A stretch of DNA of 64,000 nt. It comes from Betaproteobacteria bacterium. GTDB taxonomy: Bacteria; Pseudomonadota; Gammaproteobacteria; Burkholderiales; SG8-39. Location: the NCBI GenBank assembly GCA_005881575.1, contig VBCA01000006.1, positions 15,954 through 79,953 of the forward strand, written 5' to 3'. The position numbers and the translations under genes are program-made. Every line of letters begins with the position of its first letter. Position 1 is the first letter of the stretch. Of the stretch, positions 41,884 to 57,793 are shown piece after piece. The notes under the pieces were generated by a model. That model worked only from the letters and a program-made list of their open reading frames with translations. It was not told the origin of the DNA and did not search any database.

Positions 41884-44800
41884 ATGAAACTTCAGCACGA
41901 GTGTATCGAAGATGCGCTTGGGGCTCTCGCCGAAGACCGGCCGGCCGCGCCTGCGTTACAGGCACCGGGCCGCAAACCGCTGACCTACGCCGACCTCGCT
42001 GCCCAGATCAACCGCGTTCGAAAATACCTCGGCGGCCTGGACATCGGGCGGGGGGATATCGTCGCAGGAGTTATTCCGTCGCGGCCGGAAATGGCCGTCG
42101 CGTGTGCCACCCTCCCTGCGTCATCGACGTTCGCGCCGCTCAGCCCATCACTCACTCCCGACGACTATGCGCAATTGGTCGTTCGCATGGGCGCGAAGGC
42201 AATTCTGGCACCGAAAGGGGAGGACCATCCGGTTCGCGCGGCAGCGCGGCGGCACGGGGTTGCGGAAATCGACGTTGCGGTGGAGCCCGATGCACCCGCC
42301 GGTCTGTTCACGCTCGATCTCGGCCGGGCCGCGGACTCGCTTCGCAACCCGACGCCAGCGCGTCCGCAGCTCGCCTACATCTTGGTGTCCTCGGGTACGA
42401 CGGGCCGGCCGAAGCTCATTCCTTCACCGCACCACCAAACGCTGCGCTACGCGAACGCGGTGGGCGAGTGGCTCGAATATTCGCCGCGCGACGTGGGCTG
42501 TCATCTCATGCCCATGCATCTTGGGAACGGCTTGCGCAGCGGATGGTTGAATCCGCTTCTAAACGGAGTATCGACCGTCTGCCTTCCTGAAGTCGACGTC
42601 GACGCTTTCTTCGCGGCTCTAGAGCAATACCGGCCGACGTGTTTGAACGCCGGGTTCACCCTGTTGAGCGCGATCCTGCGCCGGGTGCCCGATTACCGAG
42701 GCGCAGTTGCCCAAAGCCGCCTCCGGTTTCTGCGCGCTGGGTTGGGACGACTCGATTCCGACGAGATCGAACGCCTCGAACAGGACTTTAGCGCACCCTT
42801 GCTCGGCGCGCTTTCGTCGACCGAAACCACTTCGATCGCCCATGACCCGCTTCCGCCGCGTCCGCGGAAACGCGGCACGGCGGGGCTCCCCCTGGGGAAC
42901 GAGATTGCGATCATGGACAGCTCCGGCGCGATCGCCGGCGCTCGCGCGGAAGGCGAGATCGTAGTCCGTGGCCCGCTCGTCTTTGGCGGCTATCTCGACG
43001 ATCCACAACTTACGGCAGAGTCGTTCGTGGGCGATTGGTTCCGCACCGGCGACCTGGGACACATCGACGAGGACGGATATATCCATCTTTCTGGGCGTAT
43101 CAAAGAGATCATCAACCGCGGCGGGGAAAAGATCTCTCCGCTCGAGATCGACCTAGCGATTCGGTCTTTGCCGGGCGTGAACGAGGCCGCTGCGTTCGGC
43201 ATCCCTCACCCAACTCTCGGGGAGGAGATCGTCGCCGCAGTAGTTCGACAACCGGATGTGACGCTCCAGGAGGCGCAGGTTATCCAGCACGTCGGCCGGC
43301 GTCTCGAGCTACGGAAGGTGCCGCGACGCATTTACTTCGTCGAGCGTCTGCCACGCACCGACAACGGCAAACTGCGCCGTCATGCACTTCCGCAATTGCT
43401 GGGCTTGACTCAAGACGCCGCCGCTCAAGGCGCTCCCTCGCCGGACGCGAAAGAGATCCGGTGTCTGTCGCCGCTCGAAGGGGCGCTTGCCGGACTTTGG
43501 GCCACGTTGCTCAAGATCGAGCACGTCAACCCAGACGACAACTTCTTTCTCCTTGGCGGGGATTCGTTGCGCGGCGTCCAACTCATCGCGCAGGTCAAGG
43601 CCTTGTTCGGTGTCGAACTCGCTATCCAGTCGCTGTTCGAGGAAGGGGCCACACTTGTCGGCATGGCGCGCTCTATCGAGGCGATTCGCAACGCGGAAAC
43701 TAAAGCGCCTGTCGGCGCCCGTAGCGCGGCGGGGCAAGCTGCCGATGCGACAATTCCTCGACGGCAAAGTCGCGAACCATCGATCCTCTCACACACGCAA
43801 CGACGCGCATGGTTTCTCGCTCGGCTCGATCCAAGCAACCCCGCCTACAACGAGCGCCGCGCACATCGACTGACCGGGACCATCGACGTCGATGCGCTGC
43901 GCGGGAGCTTGCAAGCTGTCCTGCGTCGTCACGAGATCCTGCGAACCACCTACGCCCTGGTCGATGACGAGCCGCGGCAGGTCGTGCGTGAGCACGCGAC
44001 GCTGGATCTCCGGCGCTTCGATCTCTCCTCTATGGCGGCGTCGAAGCAGGACGATGCGTTGGCCGACATCCTGACCGTCGAGGCACAACAGCCCTTCGAC
44101 CTCGAAACCGGTCCGCTCGCGCGCTTCAGTCTTATCCGTCTTGGGGACGACGATCACGTGCTGATGCGAGTGTGGCATCACATCGTCTCCGATGGCTGGT
44201 CGGCGGGGCTATTCGAGCGTGAGCTCTCGATTTTGTACAACGCGTCGGTAGCGGGCCGTGCTGCGGAGTTGCCGGCACTTGCGCTGCAGTACGCAGACTA
44301 TGCGGTATGGCAGCGCCAGTGGCTCGCCGGCGAAGCGCTGGACAAGCAGCTTGGCTACTGGAAGGGGAAGCTCGCCAACCTCTCGACCCTGGAGCTGCCT
44401 ACCGACCGCCCCCGCCCGGCGGTGCAAAGCAACCATGGGGCACGCCTGGAGAGCGTACTCCCGCAGTCACTTGCGGAAGCGGTAAAGGCGCTCGGACACG
44501 TCGCAGGCACCACGCCGTTCATGACGCTACTGGCGGCATTCCAGGTGCTGCTGCATCGCTACAGCGGCGTCGAGGATATTGTGCTGGGCACGCCGATCGC
44601 CGGGCGCAGGCGCGCCGAGCTCGAGGGGCTGATCGGATTTTTCGCCAACACGCTGGTGCTGCGCGTGAGCCTGGCGGACGCGCCGACGTTTCGCGAGCTG
44701 CTCGCGCGAGTGCGCGAAAGCGCCCTCGCCGCCTACACGCAACAGGACGTCCCCTTCGAGAAGCTGGTCGAGGAGCTCGCCCCGAGCCGCGATTTGAGCC

Positions 44801-47793
44801 GCAATCCGCTGTTCCAGGTCTGCTTTGCGCTGCAGAACACGCCCGACGCGGTGCTCGCGCTGGAGGGCCTGCAGGCCAGCCGCCTGGCGCTGCCGACCCG
44901 CCACGCCAAGTTCGATCTCACCTTGACGCTAAGCGAGCGCGCGTCGGGGCTGCAGGCAAGCTGGGAGTACTGCACCGATCTTTTCGAGCGTGCGACGATC
45001 GAGCGCATGGCGGCCCATTTTCAGCGGTTGCTCGAAGCAATCGTGGCCGATCCGGGACAGCGCATCGGGCAGTTCGCGCTACTCGACGCGGCCGATCGCC
45101 ACCGGCTGCTGGTGGAGTGGAACAACACCGCGGCAGATTACCCCAGAGAGGCCTGTCTCCACACGCTGTTCGAGGCCCGTGTAGTCAAGGCGCCGCAGGC
45201 GGTGGCGGTGGCCCACGAGGGCAACACGCTTACCTACGCCGAGCTCAACGCACGCGCCAACCGGCTCGCCCATCGCCTGCGCGCCCACGGAGTCGGGCCG
45301 CAGGCGCTGGTAGGCATTTGCATGGAGCGCAGCCTCGATCTCATAGTGGGCTTGCTCGGGATCCTGAAGGCGGGCGGCGCTTACGTGCCGCTCGATCCTT
45401 ATGTGCCTCGCGAGCGGCTAGCCTGGATGCTTGACGACGCGCACGTCGCGGTGGTCCTCACGCACGCGCATCTACGGCAGCAGCTCCCCGCCGGCCCGAA
45501 CCTGATCTGTCTCGACACCGACTGGTTTGAGATCGCGGCCGAACCCGATTACGAACCGGCATCCGCCACCACCCCCGACAACCCGATCTATGTCATCTAC
45601 ACGTCCGGCTCGACCGGCATGCCCAAGGGGGTTTTGGTCTCGCATCGATCGTTGGTGAACTACACGCAGTGTTTCAACGCCGAGTTGCAGATCGGTCCAC
45701 GCGATCGGGTGCTTCAGTTTGCTTCGGTCGCATTCGATGTTAGCGCGGAAGAAATCTTCGGCGCCTTGACGGCCGGCGCGACGCTCGTGTTACGCGACCA
45801 ACAGATGCCGCGCTCGGGATCGGCGTTTCTTCAGACGTGTGAAAGGTTGGGAATCACCGTGCTGGACCTACCGACCGCCTTCTGGCACGAACTCGTCAAC
45901 GGTTTCACACCGCGCGCGCTTAAGCTGCCACAATCGGTCCGCGCGGTGATCATCGGAGGAGAAAGAGCGCTGCCCGAACTCACCCGTCGATGGCTGCGTG
46001 AAGTCGGTCCGACTGTGCGCACGGTCAACATGTACGGACCGACCGAGGCAACCATTGCAGCGACCTGCCACGACTTGACCAACGCCACCGGCGACTGGAC
46101 AGAGGTGCCGATCGGTCGACCGATGGCGAATGTCCAGATCTACATTCTAGACGCGTACCTGCAGCCGGTGCCGGTGGGCGTACCCGGTGAGTTGCACGTC
46201 GGTGGCGTGGGGGTAGCCAAGGGCTATCTGAATCGACCCGACCTGACCGCCCAGAAATTTATTCCGCACCCATTCAGCGAGGACCCGCAGGCGCGCCTCT
46301 ACAAGACCGGCGACTGGGCACGCTACCTGCCCGACGGCAATATCCAGTTCCTGGGACGGGTGGACGCGCAGGTGAAGCTGCGCGGGTTCCGCATCGAGCC
46401 GGCAGAAATCACCTCCGCGCTGGATACCTACCCGGCTGTGCGGGCGTCCCATGTCATAGCGTGGCGGCAGGCTTCGGGCGATGTCGCCCTCGGTGCTTAC
46501 GTCGTTCCGCGGCACGCCGATCGGGATCCGCCGACCGCCGCAGAGCTACGGCGCTTCCTTTCCTCGCGCCTGCCGACCTACATGGTTCCGGTTTGGTTCG
46601 TCGTGTTGGAATCGATTCCGCTGACGTCGAATGGCAAGGTGGATTTGCATGCCCTGCCTGATCCTTCTGTCCATAGCGTGCGCGAATCCGGCGAGTATGT
46701 CGCGCCCAGGGACGAGACCGAGCGGGTCATATGTCGCCTGTGGGCCGAGGTACTCGGCATCGAGCGCGTTGGGCTCGATGACAATTTCTTCGAGATCGGC
46801 GGACACTCGCTGCTTGCGGCCCGGCTATTTGCCCGACTCGACAAGGAGTTCGGCCGGTCGCTTCCGCTCGGAGTACTGTTCGCCGCACCGACCGTCCGCG
46901 TCCTCGCCGAGAGCTACCGCGTTTCTTCAGCACCGCAAGGTTATTCCACGCTCGTCGCGCTCACGACGAGCGGCTCGCTGCCGGCCATCTACGCCGTGCC
47001 GGGGATGTTTGGAAACGTAATAGGCTTCGCTGAGCTCTCGCGCGAACTCGGGCTCGCACAACCATTCTATGGGTTGCAATCGCTAGGACTCGACGGAATG
47101 GCAACGCCGCTCGATTCGATCGACGTGATGGCAAGACGCTATGCAAGCGAGATCCAGACGATTCAGCCGCACGGACCTTATATTCTCTTCGGCGCGTGCT
47201 TCGGTGCGACCGTCGCCTACGAGATGGCTCGTCAGCTCCTCGCAGCGGGGGAAGAAGTGGCGTTCCTCGGGCTGCTGGATCCAGCGCGCCGCATTACGAG
47301 CGGGGCGAGTAAGGATCCGACTTCTACACCGCGGCTTTTGAAGCGCGCGCTGGCGCTCGGTAACTCCGTGAAGGACCGGCTGACGCTCTATCTCGAAGAG
47401 ATGCGCGGCCGCGGCTACGGCGATCGTGTCACATACATCGCGCGCAAGCTTCGTGCGCTCGGCCGCTTGCTCGGGAAAGGCGACGCCTTCAAGGACGTCC
47501 AACGCGAGATCAATCAGCTCGAAGTCTATCGGGCGAACCTCCTTGCCCTAGATCGCTATCGGCGTAAGCCGCTGAGCGGCCGCCTGCGAGCGGTTGAAAT
47601 CTTTGAAACGACCCGCCGGGGCCGCCGCCGCGAGGGCGGGTCCTCCGAATGGAGTGCGCTCTGGGAAGGCAAGGTGATTCGCCATCGCGTGCTGGGCAGA
47701 GACTCCGGGGACATGCTGACCGGTGCGAACGCACGCGTTCTCGCTGCGCTCGTTGCGGAGCGATTGCGGGTTGCCCGCGAGGGAAGCACATAG
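41884..47793 (+). CDS. Non-ribosomal peptide synthetase, A(acyl-CoA ligase-like)-T-C-A-T-TE
   Basis: A1: SSGTTGRPK, WFRTGDLG, INRGGEKI, LPRTDNGK. T1: GGDSL (Ser 43564). C: HHIVSDG (44176). A2: YTSGSTGMPKG, YGPTE, LYKTGD, PLTSNGK. T2: GGHSL (Ser 46807). TE: GACFG. Confidence 0.93.
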   Translation: MKLQHECIEDALGALAEDRPAAPALQAPGRKPLTYADLAAQINRVRKYLGGLDIGRGDIVAGVIPSRPEMAVACATLPASSTFAPLSPSLTPDDYAQLVVRMGAKAILAPKGEDHPVRAAARRHGVAEIDVAVEPDAPAGLFTLDLGRAADSLRNPTPARPQLAYILVSSGTTGRPKLIPSPHHQTLRYANAVGEWLEYSPRDVGCHLMPMHLGNGLRSGWLNPLLNGVSTVCLPEVDVDAFFAALEQYRPTCLNAGFTLLSAILRRVPDYRGAVAQSRLRFLRAGLGRLDSDEIERLEQDFSAPLLGALSSTETTSIAHDPLPPRPRKRGTAGLPLGNEIAIMDSSGAIAGARAEGEIVVRGPLVFGGYLDDPQLTAESFVGDWFRTGDLGHIDEDGYIHLSGRIKEIINRGGEKISPLEIDLAIRSLPGVNEAAAFGIPHPTLGEEIVAAVVRQPDVTLQEAQVIQHVGRRLELRKVPRRIYFVERLPRTDNGKLRRHALPQLLGLTQDAAAQGAPSPDAKEIRCLSPLEGALAGLWATLLKIEHVNPDDNFFLLGGDSLRGVQLIAQVKALFGVELAIQSLFEEGATLVGMARSIEAIRNAETKAPVGARSAAGQAADATIPRRQSREPSILSHTQRRAWFLARLDPSNPAYNERRAHRLTGTIDVDALRGSLQAVLRRHEILRTTYALVDDEPRQVVREHATLDLRRFDLSSMAASKQDDALADILTVEAQQPFDLETGPLARFSLIRLGDDDHVLMRVWHHIVSDGWSAGLFERELSILYNASVAGRAAELPALALQYADYAVWQRQWLAGEALDKQLGYWKGKLANLSTLELPTDRPRPAVQSNHGARLESVLPQSLAEAVKALGHVAGTTPFMTLLAAFQVLLHRYSGVEDIVLGTPIAGRRRAELEGLIGFFANTLVLRVSLADAPTFRELLARVRESALAAYTQQDVPFEKLVEELAPSRDLSRNPLFQVCFALQNTPDAVLALEGLQASRLALPTRHAKFDLTLTLSERASGLQASWEYCTDLFERATIERMAAHFQRLLEAIVADPGQRIGQFALLDAADRHRLLVEWNNTAADYPREACLHTLFEARVVKAPQAVAVAHEGNTLTYAELNARANRLAHRLRAHGVGPQALVGICMERSLDLIVGLLGILKAGGAYVPLDPYVPRERLAWMLDDAHVAVVLTHAHLRQQLPAGPNLICLDTDWFEIAAEPDYEPASATTPDNPIYVIYTSGSTGMPKGVLVSHRSLVNYTQCFNAELQIGPRDRVLQFASVAFDVSAEEIFGALTAGATLVLRDQQMPRSGSAFLQTCERLGITVLDLPTAFWHELVNGFTPRALKLPQSVRAVIIGGERALPELTRRWLREVGPTVRTVNMYGPTEATIAATCHDLTNATGDWTEVPIGRPMANVQIYILDAYLQPVPVGVPGELHVGGVGVAKGYLNRPDLTAQKFIPHPFSEDPQARLYKTGDWARYLPDGNIQFLGRVDAQVKLRGFRIEPAEITSALDTYPAVRASHVIAWRQASGDVALGAYVVPRHADRDPPTAAELRRFLSSRLPTYMVPVWFVVLESIPLTSNGKVDLHALPDPSVHSVRESGEYVAPRDETERVICRLWAEVLGIERVGLDDNFFEIGGHSLLAARLFARLDKEFGRSLPLGVLFAAPTVRVLAESYRVSSAPQGYSTLVALTTSGSLPAIYAVPGMFGNVIGFAELSRELGLAQPFYGLQSLGLDGMATPLDSIDVMARRYASEIQTIQPHGPYILFGACFGATVAYEMARQLLAAGEEVAFLGLLDPARRITSGASKDPTSTPRLLKRALALGNSVKDRLTLYLEEMRGRGYGDRVTYIARKLRALGRLLGKGDAFKDVQREINQLEVYRANLLALDRYRRKPLSGRLRAVEIFETTRRGRRREGGSSEWSALWEGKVIRHRVLGRDSGDMLTGANARVLAALVAERLRVAREGST

Positions 47794-47872
47794 GGCCGGA
47801 TCGCACCTATGCCGAGCGCCGGTGTCGATATGACTTGGCTACGCCGAGTTACCGTTCCTGACCGAAAATCGG

Positions 47873-48649
47873 TCAGTCTAGTCTCCGCGCAGCCTCGAAC
47901 GTCGGCTCGAGTTCAATCAGAAGCGGGCGTAGCGCTTCCGTCACCGAGCCGATGGCAACCGAGACCACATGATCGGGCGTGGGCTGGAACGTCCGCACCT
48001 GCCAGCCGGTTCTGGAGCGGGGTTCGACGGTTGGATCGTTCACGAACGCAAGCTCGTCCGCGTCTCCGATCAGCACGCAGCGCGGGTCTATCTTTAGCCC
48101 CAAGCCCAACGCCTTCAACACCGCTTCTTTGCGGGTCCACAGTCGGTGAAACGCCGCGGTAGCCTCGTTCCCGGCCAGGGTGCCCATGCGCGCCAGCTCG
48201 GACGGGGAAAGGATGGCGCTGAGCAGCGGATCGTCCACCGCGCGGGTCGATAGTCGCTCCGCATCAACACCGCAGGCCACACGTCGCGTGAGCGACACGG
48301 CAAATAGGTCCAAAGTGTGGGTGAGGTTGAACCGAATCGGTGGTGCCCCTGTGGACCAAGCGAGCTCCGGACGCCCACCGCTGCCAGTTTCGAAGGCGAG
48401 CTCGTGGGCTGCCGTGCCTATATAGGTCGCAAGCGTCAACCTGAGCGCTGCGTGCGAGGCGAGGAACATGGTGCGGTCCTCAAGCCGCCTGAAGCGTCGA
48501 GCCGTCTCTCGCTCGCTTGCATCCAACAGTGTTCCGTCGTGGACCCATGGAGGCATGCACTGCGGGGATAGGCGCCCGATCCAGACGTGAACACAGGCAT
48601 CTGAAGCATCCAGAGACTGGACGAGGCCAGGGGGTACGCGGATCCGCAT
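47873..48649 (-). CDS. Sfp-type 4'-phosphopantetheinyl transferase
   Basis: GRPEL, FNLTHT, CGVDAE, FHRLWTRKEAVLKALGLGL. Confidence 0.9.
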   Translation of the reverse strand: MRIRVPPGLVQSLDASDACVHVWIGRLSPQCMPPWVHDGTLLDASERETARRFRRLEDRTMFLASHAALRLTLATYIGTAAHELAFETGSGGRPELAWSTGAPPIRFNLTHTLDLFAVSLTRRVACGVDAERLSTRAVDDPLLSAILSPSELARMGTLAGNEATAAFHRLWTRKEAVLKALGLGLKIDPRCVLIGDADELAFVNDPTVEPRSRTGWQVRTFQPTPDHVVSVAIGSVTEALRPLLIELEPTFEAARRLD

Positions 48650-52637: not shown

Positions 52638-52692
52638 GGGCCTGCGCATGTGCAATGCCGTCGGGCGACGGAATGGGTTGCTTTGTAATGCC

Positions 52693-52718
52693 GGGCGTGC
52701 TGTAATGCGCCCTTTTTT
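52693..52718 (+). terminator. Putative intrinsic terminator
   Basis: GGGCGTG-ctgtaa-TGCGCCC (with G-U pairs) followed by T6. Confidence 0.5.
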
Positions 52719-52871
52719 CAGGACCGCCGGTGCCGTCCGGACTACCCGGACGCTTCGCTGCAAACTGCGAATCGATATGCTCAAATAAAGCTTGTTTGCC
52801 GGCGGAGAGCGTGGTTTTGGACTTGCGGTTTCGGCTACCGCCGGGCGCGCGGAAGGTGCCAGGAGATCGAA

Positions 52872-53864
52872 TTGTCGGCACAGGAAAACATGGTTCCGGT
52901 GACCATACTCACCGGCTTCTTGGGAAGCGGCAAGACCACGCTCGTCAACCGTATCCTCAAGGAGCAGCACGGCCACCGCATCGCAGTGATCGAGAACGAG
53001 TTCGGCGAGGCGGGTGTGGACAACGAAATCCTCCTGAGCGAAGCTGGCGAGCAGATCATCGAGATGAACAACGGCTGCGTCTGCTGCACCGTGCGCGGCG
53101 ACCTCATCCGTATACTGGGGGAGCTCAGGGAGCGGCGCGATTCGGGCAAGCTCAAATTCGAGCGCGTGATCATCGAGACAACCGGCATGGCCGATCCGGG
53201 CCCTGTCGCTCAGAGCTTCTTCATCGACGAGAAGATCGGCAACTATTATCTTCTGGACAGCGTCATCACCTTGGTGGACGCAAAGCATGCCGCGAGGCAA
53301 CTCGACGAGTTCCACGAGGCCCAGGAGCAGGTCGGATTCGCCGACCGGATTCTCATGTCCAAGACCGACCTCGTGTCGGAATCCGAGCAGGAAACGCTGC
53401 GGAAGCGCCTCACGAAGATGAATCCTCGGGCGCCGATCAAGAAAGTCCATTTCGGCAACACGCCGATCGAGGACATTCTCGATATCCGCGGTTTCAACCT
53501 CAACGCGACCCTCGAGCTCGATCCGGGGTTCCTCGAGGACAGCGAGCACGAGCACGACGAGCACGTCAGCTCCTTCGCATTCCGCTCGGACAAGCCGTTC
53601 GAGAGCGCGAAGCTCGAGGAGTTCCTGTCCGGGGTCGTACAGATTTACGGACCGGACATGCTGCGCTATAAAGGGGTGCTGTATATGAAGGGCAACACGC
53701 ACCGTGTCGTGTTTCAAGGGGTGCACATGCTCATGGGCGGCGATCTGGGTCGCGCCTGGGGCAAGGACGAAAAGCGTTCGAGCACGATGGTTTTCATCGG
53801 CAAGAATCTGCCGCAGGACCTATTTATGAAGGGATTGGAACAATGTTTGGTGGAAAAGCAGTAA
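52872..53864 (+). CDS. COG0523 (CobW/YjiA/ZigA-like) G3E GTPase metallochaperone
   Basis: TTG start with SD AGGAGA. GFLGSGKTT, ENEFG, GCVCC, ETTG, SKTD, HEHDEH, RYKG, FIG. Confidence 0.92.
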   Translation: MSAQENMVPVTILTGFLGSGKTTLVNRILKEQHGHRIAVIENEFGEAGVDNEILLSEAGEQIIEMNNGCVCCTVRGDLIRILGELRERRDSGKLKFERVIIETTGMADPGPVAQSFFIDEKIGNYYLLDSVITLVDAKHAARQLDEFHEAQEQVGFADRILMSKTDLVSESEQETLRKRLTKMNPRAPIKKVHFGNTPIEDILDIRGFNLNATLELDPGFLEDSEHEHDEHVSSFAFRSDKPFESAKLEEFLSGVVQIYGPDMLRYKGVLYMKGNTHRVVFQGVHMLMGGDLGRAWGKDEKRSSTMVFIGKNLPQDLFMKGLEQCLVEKQ

Positions 53865-53872
53865 AGAAGCTG

Positions 53873-54355
53873 GTGACCAAGGCGACGAAACCGGCGGAGC
53901 AGAAGCCGGCCGAGCACAAGCCGGCCGAGCACAAGCCGGCGAAGAAGAACGGCTTGACCGAGGCCGAGTTACTGCGTGCTCCTGCGTCGCAGTACATGAG
54001 CGCCGAGCAGCTCGCGTTCTTCCGCGAGCGCCTGCTCGAGACGCAAAGGGAATTGCTGGAGAAGGCGGATCTCACCTCGGAGCATCTGCGGGAGCACGAA
54101 CTGGAGGCCGATCCGACCGACCAGGCGACGATCGAGGAAGAGTACGCGCTGGAGCTCCGCGCGCGCGATCGCGAGAGGAAGCTCCTCAAGAAAATCGACG
54201 AGGCCCTGCGCCGCATCGAGGAGGGCAGCTACGGCTACTGCGAGGAAACGGGAGAGCCGATCGGCATCCCCAGGCTGATCGCGCGGCCGACGGCGACGCT
54301 CTCCATCGAGGCGCAGTCGCGCCGCGAGCAGAAGCAGAAGCTTTACGGGGAGTAG
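53873..54355 (+). CDS. dksA: RNA polymerase-binding protein DksA (zinc-free, one-Cys type)
   Basis: DPTDQA coiled-coil tip, RDRERKLLKKI, YGYCEETGEPIGIPRLIARPTATLSIEAQ. Start GTG 53873 (or ATG 53843). Confidence 0.93.
   Translation: MTKATKPAEQKPAEHKPAEHKPAKKNGLTEAELLRAPASQYMSAEQLAFFRERLLETQRELLEKADLTSEHLREHELEADPTDQATIEEEYALELRARDRERKLLKKIDEALRRIEEGSYGYCEETGEPIGIPRLIARPTATLSIEAQSRREQKQKLYGE
53888..53941 (+). repeat. In-frame 15-bp tandem repeat (KPAEQ/KPAEH, ~3.5 copies)
   Basis: aaaccggcggagcag aagccggccgagcac aagccggccgagcac aagccggcg. Confidence 0.85.
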
Positions 54356-54371
54356 ACTTGTAGTAGACTTG
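54351..54371 (+). repeat. 10-bp direct repeat AGTAGACTTG x2 spanning the dksA stop
   Basis: agtagacttg-t-agtagacttg. Confidence 0.8.
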
Positions 54372-54398
54372 CGTCCGGTGCTGCCTATGACGTCGGTC

Positions 54399-54716
54399 AT
54401 GCCGAACCGCACTCTGCGTCACCTACTCCTCGCCGCCGCGCTGGTGTTTACCCAGCAGGCGGCGCAACTGCACGCGCTGTCGCACGTGCAGTACGATATG
54501 GCGAAGGCCGAGCGCAGCGGCAAATGCGTCCCGCCCGTCAGCCATCCCGCCGAGCAGTGCATCGCGTTTCACGCCGTCGACAGCGCGCTGCCGGTGCTCG
54601 CGCTTGCGATCGAGCCGCCGAAGATCGCGTTACCGGTCATTGCGTCCGTTGATCTTCCTCTTCCCTTCGCTCCGCGGATCGAATTCGATTCGCGTGCCCC
54701 TCCCGTCCTCTCCTAG
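54399..54716 (+). CDS. DUF2946-like leader protein ending in a RAPP motif
   Basis: Hydrophobic N-terminus, HALSH, HPAEQCIAFH, Pro-rich spacer, C-terminal SRAPPVLS*. Start 54387 or 54399. Confidence 0.72.
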   Translation: MPNRTLRHLLLAAALVFTQQAAQLHALSHVQYDMAKAERSGKCVPPVSHPAEQCIAFHAVDSALPVLALAIEPPKIALPVIASVDLPLPFAPRIEFDSRAPPVLS

Positions 54717-54811
54717 TTCGGTCGCTCGGTAACCCGCTTCGCTTCTCGCGAAGCGACCGTGTTCGCGACCGCCCATCGAGGCGCATCGCGATCGCATGAA
54801 CTTGGAGAGAC
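54705..54811 (+). promoter_or_regulatory. Putative translational attenuator (anti-SD/SD stem with nested hairpins)
   Basis: CTCTCCTAGTTC (54708-19) is complementary at 11/12 positions to GAACTTGGAGAG (54798-809, contains the SD). Inner 8-bp hairpin at 54735-55. Confidence 0.65.
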
Positions 54812-54814
54812 AAC

Positions 54815-56119
54815 ATGCACAGAAAGGCAACCGTGACGCTCGCCGTCGCGGCGGCGTTCGGCCTGCCCCACGCCGCGACTGCGCAGACCCAGGACGAGCT
54901 GCGGACGTTGCGCGAGCAGGTCAGGCAACTCGACCGGCGCGTGACGGACGCCGAGCAGGCGGCGATTCAGGCCTCCAGCAGGCCGACCGGCGAGAACGCG
55001 ATGAACCCGGCCGTTTCGGTGATCCTGAACGGCATCTATTCGAATCTTTCCCAGGATCCGAACGCGTTCAGGATCAACGGATTTGTGCCGACGCTGGGCG
55101 AAGTCGGGCCTGGGGTTCGCGGTCTGAGCCTGGGCGAATCGGAGCTCGCCCTTGCGGCAAACATCGATCACAACTTCCGCGGAACGCTGATCGCATCCAT
55201 ATCGCCCGAAGACAGCATCGGCGTCGAGGAGGGCTACATTCAAACCCTCTCCCTGTCGTATGGATTCACCGTCAAGGCCGGACGCTTCTTCTCAGGCGTG
55301 GGCTATCAGAACCAGATCCACGCGCACGCCTGGGACTTCACCGACGCGCCGCTTGCGAACAAGGTGTTTCTCGGCAACCAGTTGAACGAGGACGGGATCC
55401 AGCTCAAGTGGGTGGCGCCCACCGACACCTATTTCGACGTCGGCGTCGAGGTCGGGCGCGGAAGGCAGTTTCCCGCGGCCGCGGGCCCGGCCGGACCGCG
55501 CAACAAGAACGGCGTCAGTTCGGGCACCTTGTTCGCGCACGTCGGCGGAGACCTGGGAACGGGCACCGCATGGCAGACCGGAGTCTCGTATCTGGGCACC
55601 TCGCCCCAGGACCGGAGCTTCGAGGATCCAGCCGGCAAGACCAACAGCTTCACGGGCCAAAGCCGCCTTTGGGTGTTGGACGGAATCCTGAAGTGGGCGC
55701 CGAACTACAACCCGACTTACACCAACCTCAAGCTGCAGGGCGAATACTTCCGCCGCAAGGAAGATGGCGATCTCACCTCAGGTGCCGCGGCGCAAACGGG
55801 CGGGTTCGCATCGGTGCAGTCGGGCTGGTACCTGCAAAGCGTCTATCAGTTCGTTCCGATGTGGCGGGTCGGCTATCGATATGACAGGCTGAACTCGGGC
55901 ACCGCCAGCTTTTCGGCTCCGCTCAACGCAGCGGATTTCCCGATCCTCGCCGCGTACAACCCGACGCGGCACACGGTGATGGCCGATTGGAGCCCGAGCG
56001 AGTTCAGCCGAGTGCGGCTGCAGTTCGCGAGCGACAAGTCGCGCAGCGATGTGACCGACAAGCAGGTCTTTCTCCAGTACATCGTGAGTCTGGGCGCGCA
56101 CGGCGCCCACAAATTCTGA
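54815..56119 (+). CDS. Outer-membrane beta-barrel metal-uptake protein
   Basis: Signal peptide, short coiled coil, NPAVSVIL, VEEGY, KAGRFF, QIHAHAWDF, SEFSRVRLQ, C-terminal GAHGAHKF. Confidence 0.75.
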   Translation: MHRKATVTLAVAAAFGLPHAATAQTQDELRTLREQVRQLDRRVTDAEQAAIQASSRPTGENAMNPAVSVILNGIYSNLSQDPNAFRINGFVPTLGEVGPGVRGLSLGESELALAANIDHNFRGTLIASISPEDSIGVEEGYIQTLSLSYGFTVKAGRFFSGVGYQNQIHAHAWDFTDAPLANKVFLGNQLNEDGIQLKWVAPTDTYFDVGVEVGRGRQFPAAAGPAGPRNKNGVSSGTLFAHVGGDLGTGTAWQTGVSYLGTSPQDRSFEDPAGKTNSFTGQSRLWVLDGILKWAPNYNPTYTNLKLQGEYFRRKEDGDLTSGAAAQTGGFASVQSGWYLQSVYQFVPMWRVGYRYDRLNSGTASFSAPLNAADFPILAAYNPTRHTVMADWSPSEFSRVRLQFASDKSRSDVTDKQVFLQYIVSLGAHGAHKF

Positions 56120-56129
56120 GGTGACGAAC

Positions 56130-57035
56130 ATGAAAGCGATTCTGAGATTTCTTTTCGCGTTGAGTTCGCTTGTTGTTGCGCTGCCGGCAACCGCGGCGCT
56201 CAACGTATTCGCCTGCGAGCCCGAATGGACCGCCCTGGCGCAGGAGCTGGGGGGAGACAAGGTGTCGATCTATTCGGCCACGACCGCGTTGCAGGATCCG
56301 CACCGCATCGAAGCGCGTCCCAGCCTGATCGCGCGCATCCGCTCCGCCGATCTGCTGATCTGTTCCGGTTCCGAGCTGGAGATCGGTTGGATCCCGCTCT
56401 TGCTCACGCAAAGCGGGAACAGCAAGATCCAGCTCGGCAGCCCGGGTTACTTCGAGGCCTCGCAGCACGTCGCCAGGCTGGAGATCCCGAAGGTGATCGA
56501 CCGGGCGCTCGGGGACATGCATCCCGGCGGCAATCCGCACGTCCATACCGACCCGCGCAACATCGCCAGGATCGCGCCGGCGCTCATGGAGCGCATGTCG
56601 GAGCTCGATCCGGCGAACGCCGAAAGCTACCGTTCGCGCGGCAGATCGTTTCTCGAGCGCTGGCAGGCGGCGATCGCGCGCTGGGAGCAGCAGGCGACGC
56701 CGCTCAAGGGCGTCCCGGTCGTTGTGTACCATAAGGACTTCTCGTATTTCATCAATTGGACGGGAATGCGCGAAGTCGGAAGTCTTGAACCGAAACCCGG
56801 CATTCCGCCCACTCCCTCGCATCTCGCCGAATTGATAGACCAGATGAAACGCGCTCCCGCAAAAGTGATCGTCTATTCGCCCTACAGCAACCCGCAGGCC
56901 GCGGAGTTCCTGTCGAGCAGGGCCAACATTCCCGCAGTCATGGTGCCCTTCACGGTCGGCGGAACGGACAAGGCGAAAGACCTGTTCGGCTTGTTCGACG
57001 ACACGATCGCTCGGTTGCTGGGAGCCGTGAAATGA
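56130..57035 (+). CDS. Metal ABC transporter substrate-binding protein (ZnuA/TroA family)
   Basis: QDPHRIEARPS, ELEIGW, HPGGNPH, YHKDFSY, EPKPGIPPTPSHL. Confidence 0.88.
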   Translation: MKAILRFLFALSSLVVALPATAALNVFACEPEWTALAQELGGDKVSIYSATTALQDPHRIEARPSLIARIRSADLLICSGSELEIGWIPLLLTQSGNSKIQLGSPGYFEASQHVARLEIPKVIDRALGDMHPGGNPHVHTDPRNIARIAPALMERMSELDPANAESYRSRGRSFLERWQAAIARWEQQATPLKGVPVVVYHKDFSYFINWTGMREVGSLEPKPGIPPTPSHLAELIDQMKRAPAKVIVYSPYSNPQAAEFLSSRANIPAVMVPFTVGGTDKAKDLFGLFDDTIARLLGAVK

Positions 57036-57793
57036 ACATCGACGCAGCGAGTCTCGGCATCCTCTGGCCTGCGTTCATCGCGGGTCTCTTGGTCACCGCC
57101 ACCCACGTCCCGCTCGGGATGCAAGTACTGTCCCGCGGCATCGTGTTCATCGACCTGGCAGTGGCGCAAATTGCGGGTGTCGGAGTAATCCTGGCGGATT
57201 TCTTGGGCTGGGAGCCCACGGGCGTTGCGGTGCAGGTTGCTGCGCTCAGCGCGGCGATTGCGGGTGCCGTCCTTTTGACCTGGACCGAGCGCCGCTGGCC
57301 GGAAGTTCAAGAAGCGGTCATCGGCGTGGTATTCGTACTCGCCTCGAGTCTTGCGATCTTGCTGCTTGCCGGGAATCCGCGCGGTGGCGAACATCTCAAG
57401 GAGCTTCTGGTCGGCCAGATCTTGTGGGTAAACCCCGCACGGCTTCCGCTGGTTGCCCTGGCGACCGCTGCGATACTCGCGCTCTGGTTTGGTCTAGGCG
57501 AGCGACTGGGCAGGATGGGCTTCTATCTGTTGTTCGCGTGCGCGGTCACCATGTCATTGCAACTGGTCGGGCTGTACCTGGTTTTCATCTCGCTGGTGGT
57601 GCCTGCCCTCGCTACCTATTATCAAAGGCGCCGACGCTATGCCAAGGCCTATGCGGTCGGCGTACTCGGCTACGCGGCCGGCCTCCTCGCGTCGCTGTGG
57701 CTCGACCTTCCCTCCGGCGCGATGATCGTATGCGCCGTGGTTGCCGCCGGAGTGCTCGTGGCGTTCGTCGGTCGCAGGGCCTCGGCTTCCTGA
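57032..57793 (+). CDS. Metal ABC transporter permease (ABC-3 family)
   Basis: HVPLGMQVLSRGIVFIDLAVAQIA, QEAVIG, LVGQILWV, GLYLVF, DLPSG. Confidence 0.85.
   Translation: MNIDAASLGILWPAFIAGLLVTATHVPLGMQVLSRGIVFIDLAVAQIAGVGVILADFLGWEPTGVAVQVAALSAAIAGAVLLTWTERRWPEVQEAVIGVVFVLASSLAILLLAGNPRGGEHLKELLVGQILWVNPARLPLVALATAAILALWFGLGERLGRMGFYLLFACAVTMSLQLVGLYLVFISLVVPALATYYQRRRRYAKAYAVGVLGYAAGLLASLWLDLPSGAMIVCAVVAAGVLVAFVGRRASAS

Follow-up and report, generated by a model that had tools for sequence, protein, structure and literature searches.

Does the ribosome that translates a small leader decide whether the porin and transporter genes behind it are translated? This question is raised by a locus in the 64,000-nt stretch of DNA analysed here (the window), which covers positions 15,954-79,953 on the forward strand of contig VBCA01000006.1 of Betaproteobacteria bacterium (GCA_005881575.1). 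The original prediction held that the last codons of the leader pair with the next gene's Shine-Dalgarno (SD) sequence. We found that this is very probably a conserved, stall-operated translation switch, as judged from sequence, conservation, covariation and gene content together with a predicted fold and its predicted opening. On balance, we favour the reading in which a stalled ribosome covers the anti-SD arm and frees the SD of the porin gene, so that a probable zinc-uptake operon would be translated under metal scarcity.

The leader and the genes around it

The leader ORF (54378-54716) encodes 112 residues from GTG 54378, which aligns with ATG in close relatives; ATG 54387 (109 residues) and ATG 54399 (105 residues) are other possible starts, and the product is about 110 residues long. 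Upstream are located a COG0523/CobW-family GTPase gene (52872-53864) and dksA (53843-54355; TIGR02420 over cut-off). Downstream, 98 nt separate the leader stop from ATG 54815 of a gene for an exported 434-residue protein (54815-56119), which is followed by genes for a ZnuA-family periplasmic metal-binding protein (56121-57035; PF01297, E 3e-44) and an ABC-3 (ZnuB-like) permease (57032-57793; PF00950, E 2e-21). All these genes, and all the leader and RNA elements described below, are on the + strand. Elsewhere in the window, inspection of the translations shows an NRPS-like gene of 1969 residues (41884-48649), adjoined on the divergent strand by a phosphopantetheinyl-transferase-like gene.

The N-terminus of the leader is basic and then hydrophobic by inspection, and a long helix is predicted; the AlphaFold model (pTM 0.39) consists of two helices with a tail that is disordered. 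Candidate metal ligands are found in HALSH (His32-x3-His36, 54471-54485), which is invariant, and in CIAFH (Cys61-x3-His65, 54558-54572), and the ORF ends with the RAPP codons CGT GCC CCT CCC (54693-54704), the predicted arrest site, followed by GTC CTC TCC (VLS) and the stop TAG (54714-54716). A C-terminal RAPP-like motif in a small upstream ORF defines leaders of the ApdA/ApdP type, and the window leader has this arrangement. HxxxH, the Cys and PP were observed to be invariant in the leaders, with HxxxH and the Cys present in 22 of 22 aligned sequences. The family profile gathered 1948 representatives at E<=0.001, and motifs were counted in the best 149 of these, where 143 are motif-bearing and 117 have a Cys motif. 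HxxxH is found in 139 of the 143. The Cys motif is variable (CxxH 44, Cx8C 37, CxxxH 18, CxxC 17, none 26), and the distance from the first Cys to the Arg is 45-48 residues in 108 of the 117 and 45 residues in the window. A tail of three residues follows the PP motif in all 43 loci and in 118 of the 143 representatives, and QAPP, QGPP or RDPP replaces RAPP in 60 of the 149. PF11162 (DUF2946) gave no match to the window leader, a weak match in 3 of 22 relatives (best E 0.0018) and scores of 16.9-21.5 bits in 5 of 14 representatives, below the cut-off of 23.7; as far as these sequence scores go, the leaders are distant kin of DUF2946 and by score lie outside that family.

A -10-like hexamer, TAGACT (54364-54369), is located 8 nt before GTG 54378. 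Of the 43 loci, 21 have such a hexamer (TAGACT, TAGAAT or TACACT) at a distance of 5-9 nt upstream of a possible leader start, compared with 63 of 2760 called genes; the pattern was picked after the loci had been seen and several starts per leader were permitted. A sigma-70 scan did not call the window hexamer. These sequences suggest a leaderless leader transcript made from its own promoter. Contigs from RNA runs (4 of 12 runs, these 4 from one study; best share 0.30) were short and covered cobW, dksA and pieces of the leader; none extended across the helix described below.

The 434-residue protein gave no Pfam or NCBIfam match, and a PDB sequence search with the porin alignment returned nothing significant. 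It carries His-rich conserved motifs and has at least 7904 relatives, and its model (pLDDT 63) is a beta-barrel in which no TonB plug was seen. The top Foldseek matches were OmpT, OprP, ChiP and OprO (E 1e-9 to 1e-7), and its Atlas clusters are named porin, carbohydrate porin or TonB-dependent receptor. It is predicted from this fold to be an outer-membrane porin.

A predicted helix between the leader end and the porin SD

The sequence strings quoted in the original prediction all occur where it had placed them, and folding predicts the proposed helix. The leader end (54705-54719) pairs with 54798-54811 through 13 bp, a bulged C (54707 or 54708) and a U-U mismatch (54714/54803). The anti-SD arm consists of the last three codons, the stop and 3 nt beyond, and begins at the base directly after the RAPP codons; the opposite arm contains the SD GGAGAG (54804-54809), which precedes ATG 54815 as had been claimed. 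In five folded segments of 121-261 nt (ViennaRNA), the pairs 54709-54713/54804-54808 reached p 0.99-1.0. The enclosed hairpin at 54735-54755 was also predicted, its inner 4 bp at p 0.96-0.98 and its outer pairs in competition with others. A third helix (54759-54795, p 0.85-1.0), which had been overlooked, brings the two outer arms together, and the three helices form a predicted three-way junction. It had further been proposed that CGGTCGC (54719-54725) pairs with either of two GCGACCG copies. Pairing with the copy at 54753 was predicted (p 0.42-0.56); pairing with the copy at 54765 never rose above p 0.3, because 54765-54768 are occupied by the third helix. Only 8 of 43 loci contain a 7-nt complement, and 4 of 43 contain at least two copies of it, so this alternative is lineage-specific and was discarded as a designed part of the switch.

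Occlusion of the SD is by itself unremarkable in such GC-rich RNA, because shuffled sequences often pair it as well. When the upstream RNA was randomised by dinucleotide shuffling with the ribosome-binding site (RBS) held fixed, the SD was on average 83% paired, and in 51 of 200 shuffles it was at least 95% paired to some partner. What stands out is the position of the partner: only 1 of 200 shuffles reached the 11 leader-end/RBS pairs observed, and 29 of 200 reached 5. Among background gene pairs of the same genome (same strand, gap 35-100 nt, SD present; rough gene calls, SD strength scored with a 16S anti-SD motif), 7 of 136 reached 5 pairs and 1 of 136 reached 11.

Relatives were collected by scanning species genomes with the downstream protein, which gave 45 loci (3 truncated), mostly labelled as Burkholderiales or Betaproteobacteria MAGs. 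Wherever upstream DNA was available (42 loci, with the start of L019 adjusted manually), a leader ending in [RQ][AGD]PP-xxx-stop was found 35-98 nt before the porin ATG. The expected number of leader-end/RBS pairs is at least 5 in 37 of 43 loci, the window included, compared with the 7 of 136 background pairs. A second set, taken from 60 genomes of the family, is more divergent and partly overlaps the first; here 14 of 22 scored loci pass after removal of the window's own locus, 2 duplicates, 2 truncated loci, 1 without a porin, 1 with an RTPP leader and 1 with a frameshifted porin. The loci below 5 predicted pairs number 6 of 43 in the first set and 8 of 22 in the divergent set.

We noticed that the two arms change together by clade. 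For example, leaders ending in Leu-Ser-stop were observed with GGAGA(G), and those ending in Leu-Leu-stop with AGAGGAG or AAGGAG. Since the alignment of the distant group was too poor for counting by column, a swap test was used, in which the leader end of each locus was paired with its own or a foreign SD. Among 25 representatives below 80% identity, cognate pairs averaged -16.1 and non-cognate pairs -12.1 kcal/mol, a difference reached in 0 of 20,000 permutations; among 16 below 70% identity the values were -16.7 and -12.1 kcal/mol (0 of 20,000), and with 4 below 60% identity 826 of 20,000 permutations reached it. A control stretch further upstream showed no difference (-8.2 and -8.0 kcal/mol). 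The choice of codons points the same way: a final Ser is encoded by TCC in 30 of 30 cases (background 14%) and a final Leu by CTC in 13 of 13 (background 39%), and the median pairing of the tail codons is -13.2 compared with -7.5 for synonymous recodings, with 21 of 25 loci within the best 10%. In the close clade, 91% of the cells of the three-helix structure are paired and 10 of its pairs show changes on both sides, which was reached in 0 of 500 shuffles, and slid controls have 30-56% of cells paired. The hairpin at 54735-54755 is conserved (95% of its cells are paired, and 10 of 25 sequences have a two-sided change at one pair), as is the helix at 54759-54795 (93%, two-sided changes in 5 of 13 pairs). 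Within this clade the six core anti-SD/SD pairs hardly vary and therefore show conservation, not covariation. RNAalifold recovered only the 6-bp SD helix and the first hairpin from the 25-sequence alignment, with a small covariation energy of -0.28. All these conservation and covariation counts are inflated by the relatedness of the sequences.

Proposed stall position and output of the switch

The stall was placed with the geometry of ApdA/ApdP (PMC10951233), with the Pro codon 54699-54701 in the P site and 54702-54704 occupying the A site, and the ribosome was taken to cover 12-15 nt from the P-site codon. Under this modelled ribosome, opening the SD becomes cheaper: in the window it costs 2.3 kcal/mol instead of 8-10, and the median of 25 loci is 3.4-4.3 kcal/mol instead of about 9. 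The step coincides with the first Pro in the P site or with one codon earlier, and it wants at least 12 covered nt, as about 15% of the SD is open with 11 and it is shut with 9. After opening, the AUG remains paired in a weak hairpin, and opening of -16..+3 then costs 5.0 kcal/mol instead of 12.5. In the same model a ribosome simply running to the stop codon opens the helix equally; therefore, the role of the stall would be to prolong the opening. The secM-like logic of the original prediction thus agrees with the conservation, the covariation, the constraint on synonymous codons and the modelled step at RAPP. Stalling, the identity of the metal and its releasing effect we infer from CruR, from ApdA/ApdP and from the uptake-type gene content. 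It is highly likely that the ribosome stalls on RAPP, and with nearly the same confidence we expect unmasking of the SD to be the working output.

Similar outputs are known. Control of a stem by a RAPP-like peptide has been shown for uDF_RQH (PMC10987492). SecM, MifM and VemP, ApdA/ApdP and uDF_RQH differ from the window leader in that they monitor protein export and control sec or yidC genes, and no metal motif appears in the accessible accounts of them (PMC10951233, PMC10987492). CutF, which precedes cutO in Rhodobacter capsulatus (PMC9973294), is closer: it is an exported metal-binding leader with a C-terminal proline motif and a stem-loop over the next SD that is opened by stalling. An SD-hiding stem-loop within reach of the stalled ribosome was likewise found in the window, where it is predicted, conserved and covarying. 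However, CutF has CxxxC and a copper-induced, EF-P-dependent polyproline stall and serves detoxification, whereas the window leader has CxxxH, HxxxH and RAPP before an uptake-like operon; the CutF stem-loop is also described as intergenic, in contrast to the anti-SD in the window, which is the leader's own last codons. CruR (Bp2923, DUF2946/PF11162), which precedes bfrG in Bordetella pertussis (PMC9426467), shares its layout and inferred polarity with the window leader, as well as a tail of three residues and a conserved Cys-to-Arg spacing (49 in CruR by residue numbers, 45 in the window leader). It differs in having CxxC and responding to copper, where the window leader has HxxxH and CxxxH and no CxxC; in its target, a TonB receptor with PepSY instead of a porin with ZnuA/ZnuB-like genes; and in its reported output, Rho-dependent termination across a spacer of 162 nt, an SD-hiding helix being absent from the accessible text. 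The switch would have a SecM/CutF-like output and a CruR-like logic, and is a member of neither CruR nor CutF by motif or Pfam score.

The strongest rival makes CruR-type attenuation the main output: the stalled ribosome would shield a Rho site, metal would release it, and the SD helix would be secondary or a fail-safe. In the favoured reading, too, Rho may add termination because the 3' half of the leader is C-rich. A C-rich, G-poor stretch of 78 nt (54638-54715) is a possible Rho loading site as in CruR; its C/G ratio of 2.29 is reached by 0.6% of 2757 gene ends in the same genome, and a ratio of at least 1.48 was found in 43 of 43 loci and in 21% of the background. A pyrimidine run 13-20 codons before RAPP occupies the position of the rut site mapped in CruR (PMC9426467), the inferred polarity is the same, and no intrinsic terminator was found in the spacer. 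However, the excess of C comes mostly from amino-acid content, the excess at the codon level is centred on RAPP and the tail, and the best C-rich segments include the anti-SD itself. The spacer is short (35-98 nt compared with 162 in CruR) and highly paired, and covariation with each locus's own SD requires selection on translation initiation. We consider it unlikely that attenuation is the main output and retain SD unmasking in this role.

The putative metal signal

The genes around the leader point to metal uptake. A downstream ZnuA-like gene is present in 38 of 43 loci and a ZnuB-like gene in 36, a COG0523 gene lies upstream in 36 and dksA in 21, and ZIP transporters flank 2 loci. Zur regulons can include both COG0523 proteins and paralogues of dksA (PMC6103462, PMC11340326). 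The ZnuA-like protein scores under every NCBIfam equivalog cut-off, so the sensed metal may be Mn, Co or Ni; zinc is nevertheless the metal that we regard as reasonably likely. No ATPase gene directly follows the ZnuB-like permease in the window and none was identified there in related loci, and no ZnuC over cut-off was found in the genome (96.6% complete).

Neither was Zur found in this genome, where Fur and an Irr/PerR-like protein were the only ones present. In all 5 operon-bearing genomes that have one, a gene of the Fur family with CxxC motifs is located 1.4-4.9 kb upstream on the same strand; we take this gene, which heads the cluster, to be probably Zur from its position. Such a gene was counted in 5 of 26 operon-bearing genomes and 6 of 35 others (absent from 21 of 26 and 29 of 35), with a weak 49-residue match in G044 scored as negative, and an enterobacterial Zur model scored over cut-off in 0 of 61 genomes. 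Zur is thus rare in the family with the query used, and an anti-correlation in which the leader replaces Zur was rejected on the same counts. The palindrome TGCAAC-N3-GTTGCA, presumably the Zur box, which is present before the Zur-like gene in L078/L079, gave 0 matches in the window with up to 2 mismatches and no exact match in the genome. The gap between the rlmI-like gene and cobW (52638-52871, 234 nt) contains neither this palindrome nor the Zur-like gene, both of which are found there in G052 and G056. In one of these genomes (L073/L076, G052:C21:137949-139167) the porin gene seems to be frameshifted, with the leader and the Zur-like gene intact. In another locus (L043:1173-3500), an ABC ATPase, an FtsX-type permease and more genes are inserted between cobW and the leader; this insert resembles the Zur-regulated PA4063-66 cluster of Pseudomonas.

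The favoured mechanism would run as follows. With no ribosome on the leader end, the three-way junction would hide GGAGAG. When metal is scarce, a lasting stall at RAPP would keep the anti-SD arm covered and the SD open, and the operon would be translated. When metal is present, the nascent chain would bind it via His32/His36 and Cys61/His65 and fold just outside the exit tunnel or the translocon, which would pull the arrest loose; leader translation would then terminate and the helix close over the SD, and the untranslated C-rich RNA might perhaps also be terminated by Rho.

That metal releases the stall, and does not induce it, is the probable polarity. In the opposite polarity, periplasmic metal would induce or prolong the stall and the operon would be on with metal, for example for export or sequestration. 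CutF, alone among metal leaders in having a stem-loop over the SD that has been tested, has this polarity (PMC9973294; bioRxiv 2025.02.05.636593), and as the permease lacks an ATPase partner, uptake is no more than the probable direction of transport. The ZnuA/ZnuB-like, COG0523, ZIP and Zur-like neighbours, however, indicate uptake under scarcity, and RAPP arrests intrinsically and is EF-P-resistant (PMC12992588), unlike the proline motif of CutF. We therefore regard this polarity as improbable. Equally improbable is a purely constitutive arrangement without metal input, whether translational coupling or SecM-like monitoring of Sec. Any ribosome at or past RAPP opens the modelled helix, the leader has a hydrophobic N-terminus, its three downstream products all use an export pathway, and the Cys motif varies and is missing in 26 of 143 representatives, all as such an arrangement would allow; HxxxH and the nearly fixed distance from Cys to the arrest site are nevertheless kept while the rest diverges to 22-30% identity, in a gene context that is consistently metal-related. 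That a pyrimidine-rich run of codons matches a purine-rich SD by chance can be dismissed as highly implausible, as the CU-rich nature of Leu, Ser and Pro codons and the SD pairing seen in most shuffles are outweighed by pairing in 37 of 43 loci against a low background rate, by the swap test and by the fixation of synonymous codons.

Returning to release by metal under an SD-unmasking output, a more specific and tentative possibility is that the leader is a zinc-sensing arrest switch, a protein-based stand-in for a zinc riboswitch, which would be the sole zinc control of the ATPase-less porin/ZnuA/ZnuB uptake route in the many soil betaproteobacteria that gave no Zur match (21 of 26 operon-bearing genomes). 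In this zinc-sensing form, one short RNA stretch would encode the arrest tail and the anti-SD together. No riboswitch for Cu or Zn had been described according to Roy et al. (PMC9426467), and in the literature found, metal sensing by a nascent chain has been tested solely for copper (CruR, CutF). A zinc-responsive RAPP leader was likewise absent from the literature found; subscription papers and supplements (PMC9426467 Table S1, PMC9973294 File S1, Fig. S6) may hold one. In this family, the stalled ribosome is a concrete and testable candidate for a zinc sensor; the family joins the inferred polarity of CruR, in which metal turns the operon off, to the output of CutF and SecM, it makes natural compensatory arm pairs available across loci, and it points to an uncharacterised metal porin and a ZnuAB-like pair for which no ATPase was found.

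Part of this arrangement was already on record. The catalogue of RAPP/RGPP upstream ORFs by Fujiwara et al. 2025 (PMC12992588) lists in its source data RAPP ORFs before genes for a 'carbohydrate porin' and a 'zinc-regulated TonB-dependent receptor', and these are probably the same class as judged by eye and by Atlas cluster names. Its main text has 0 occurrences of 'zinc' and of QAPP/QGPP, and in its accessible parts the class comes without discussion of RNA structure and with no member tested. The mechanism class is established and the pairing of leader and porin stands in a published supplement, which makes the present finding less surprising.

Outside the window, the same genome carries a second, canonical CruR-like leader (G000:C62:1970-1993, - strand) with CxxC and RAPP-FFS-stop. 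The gene 102 nt behind it probably encodes an outer-membrane barrel, whose N-terminus carries a CGSAFC motif. Anti-SD tails may be general in DUF2946 leaders. The tail of this second leader also closes with TCC TGA, and part of it is predicted to bind the purine run in front of the next ATG; with a stalled ribosome in the model, opening the SD costs 3.9 instead of 7.3 kcal/mol.
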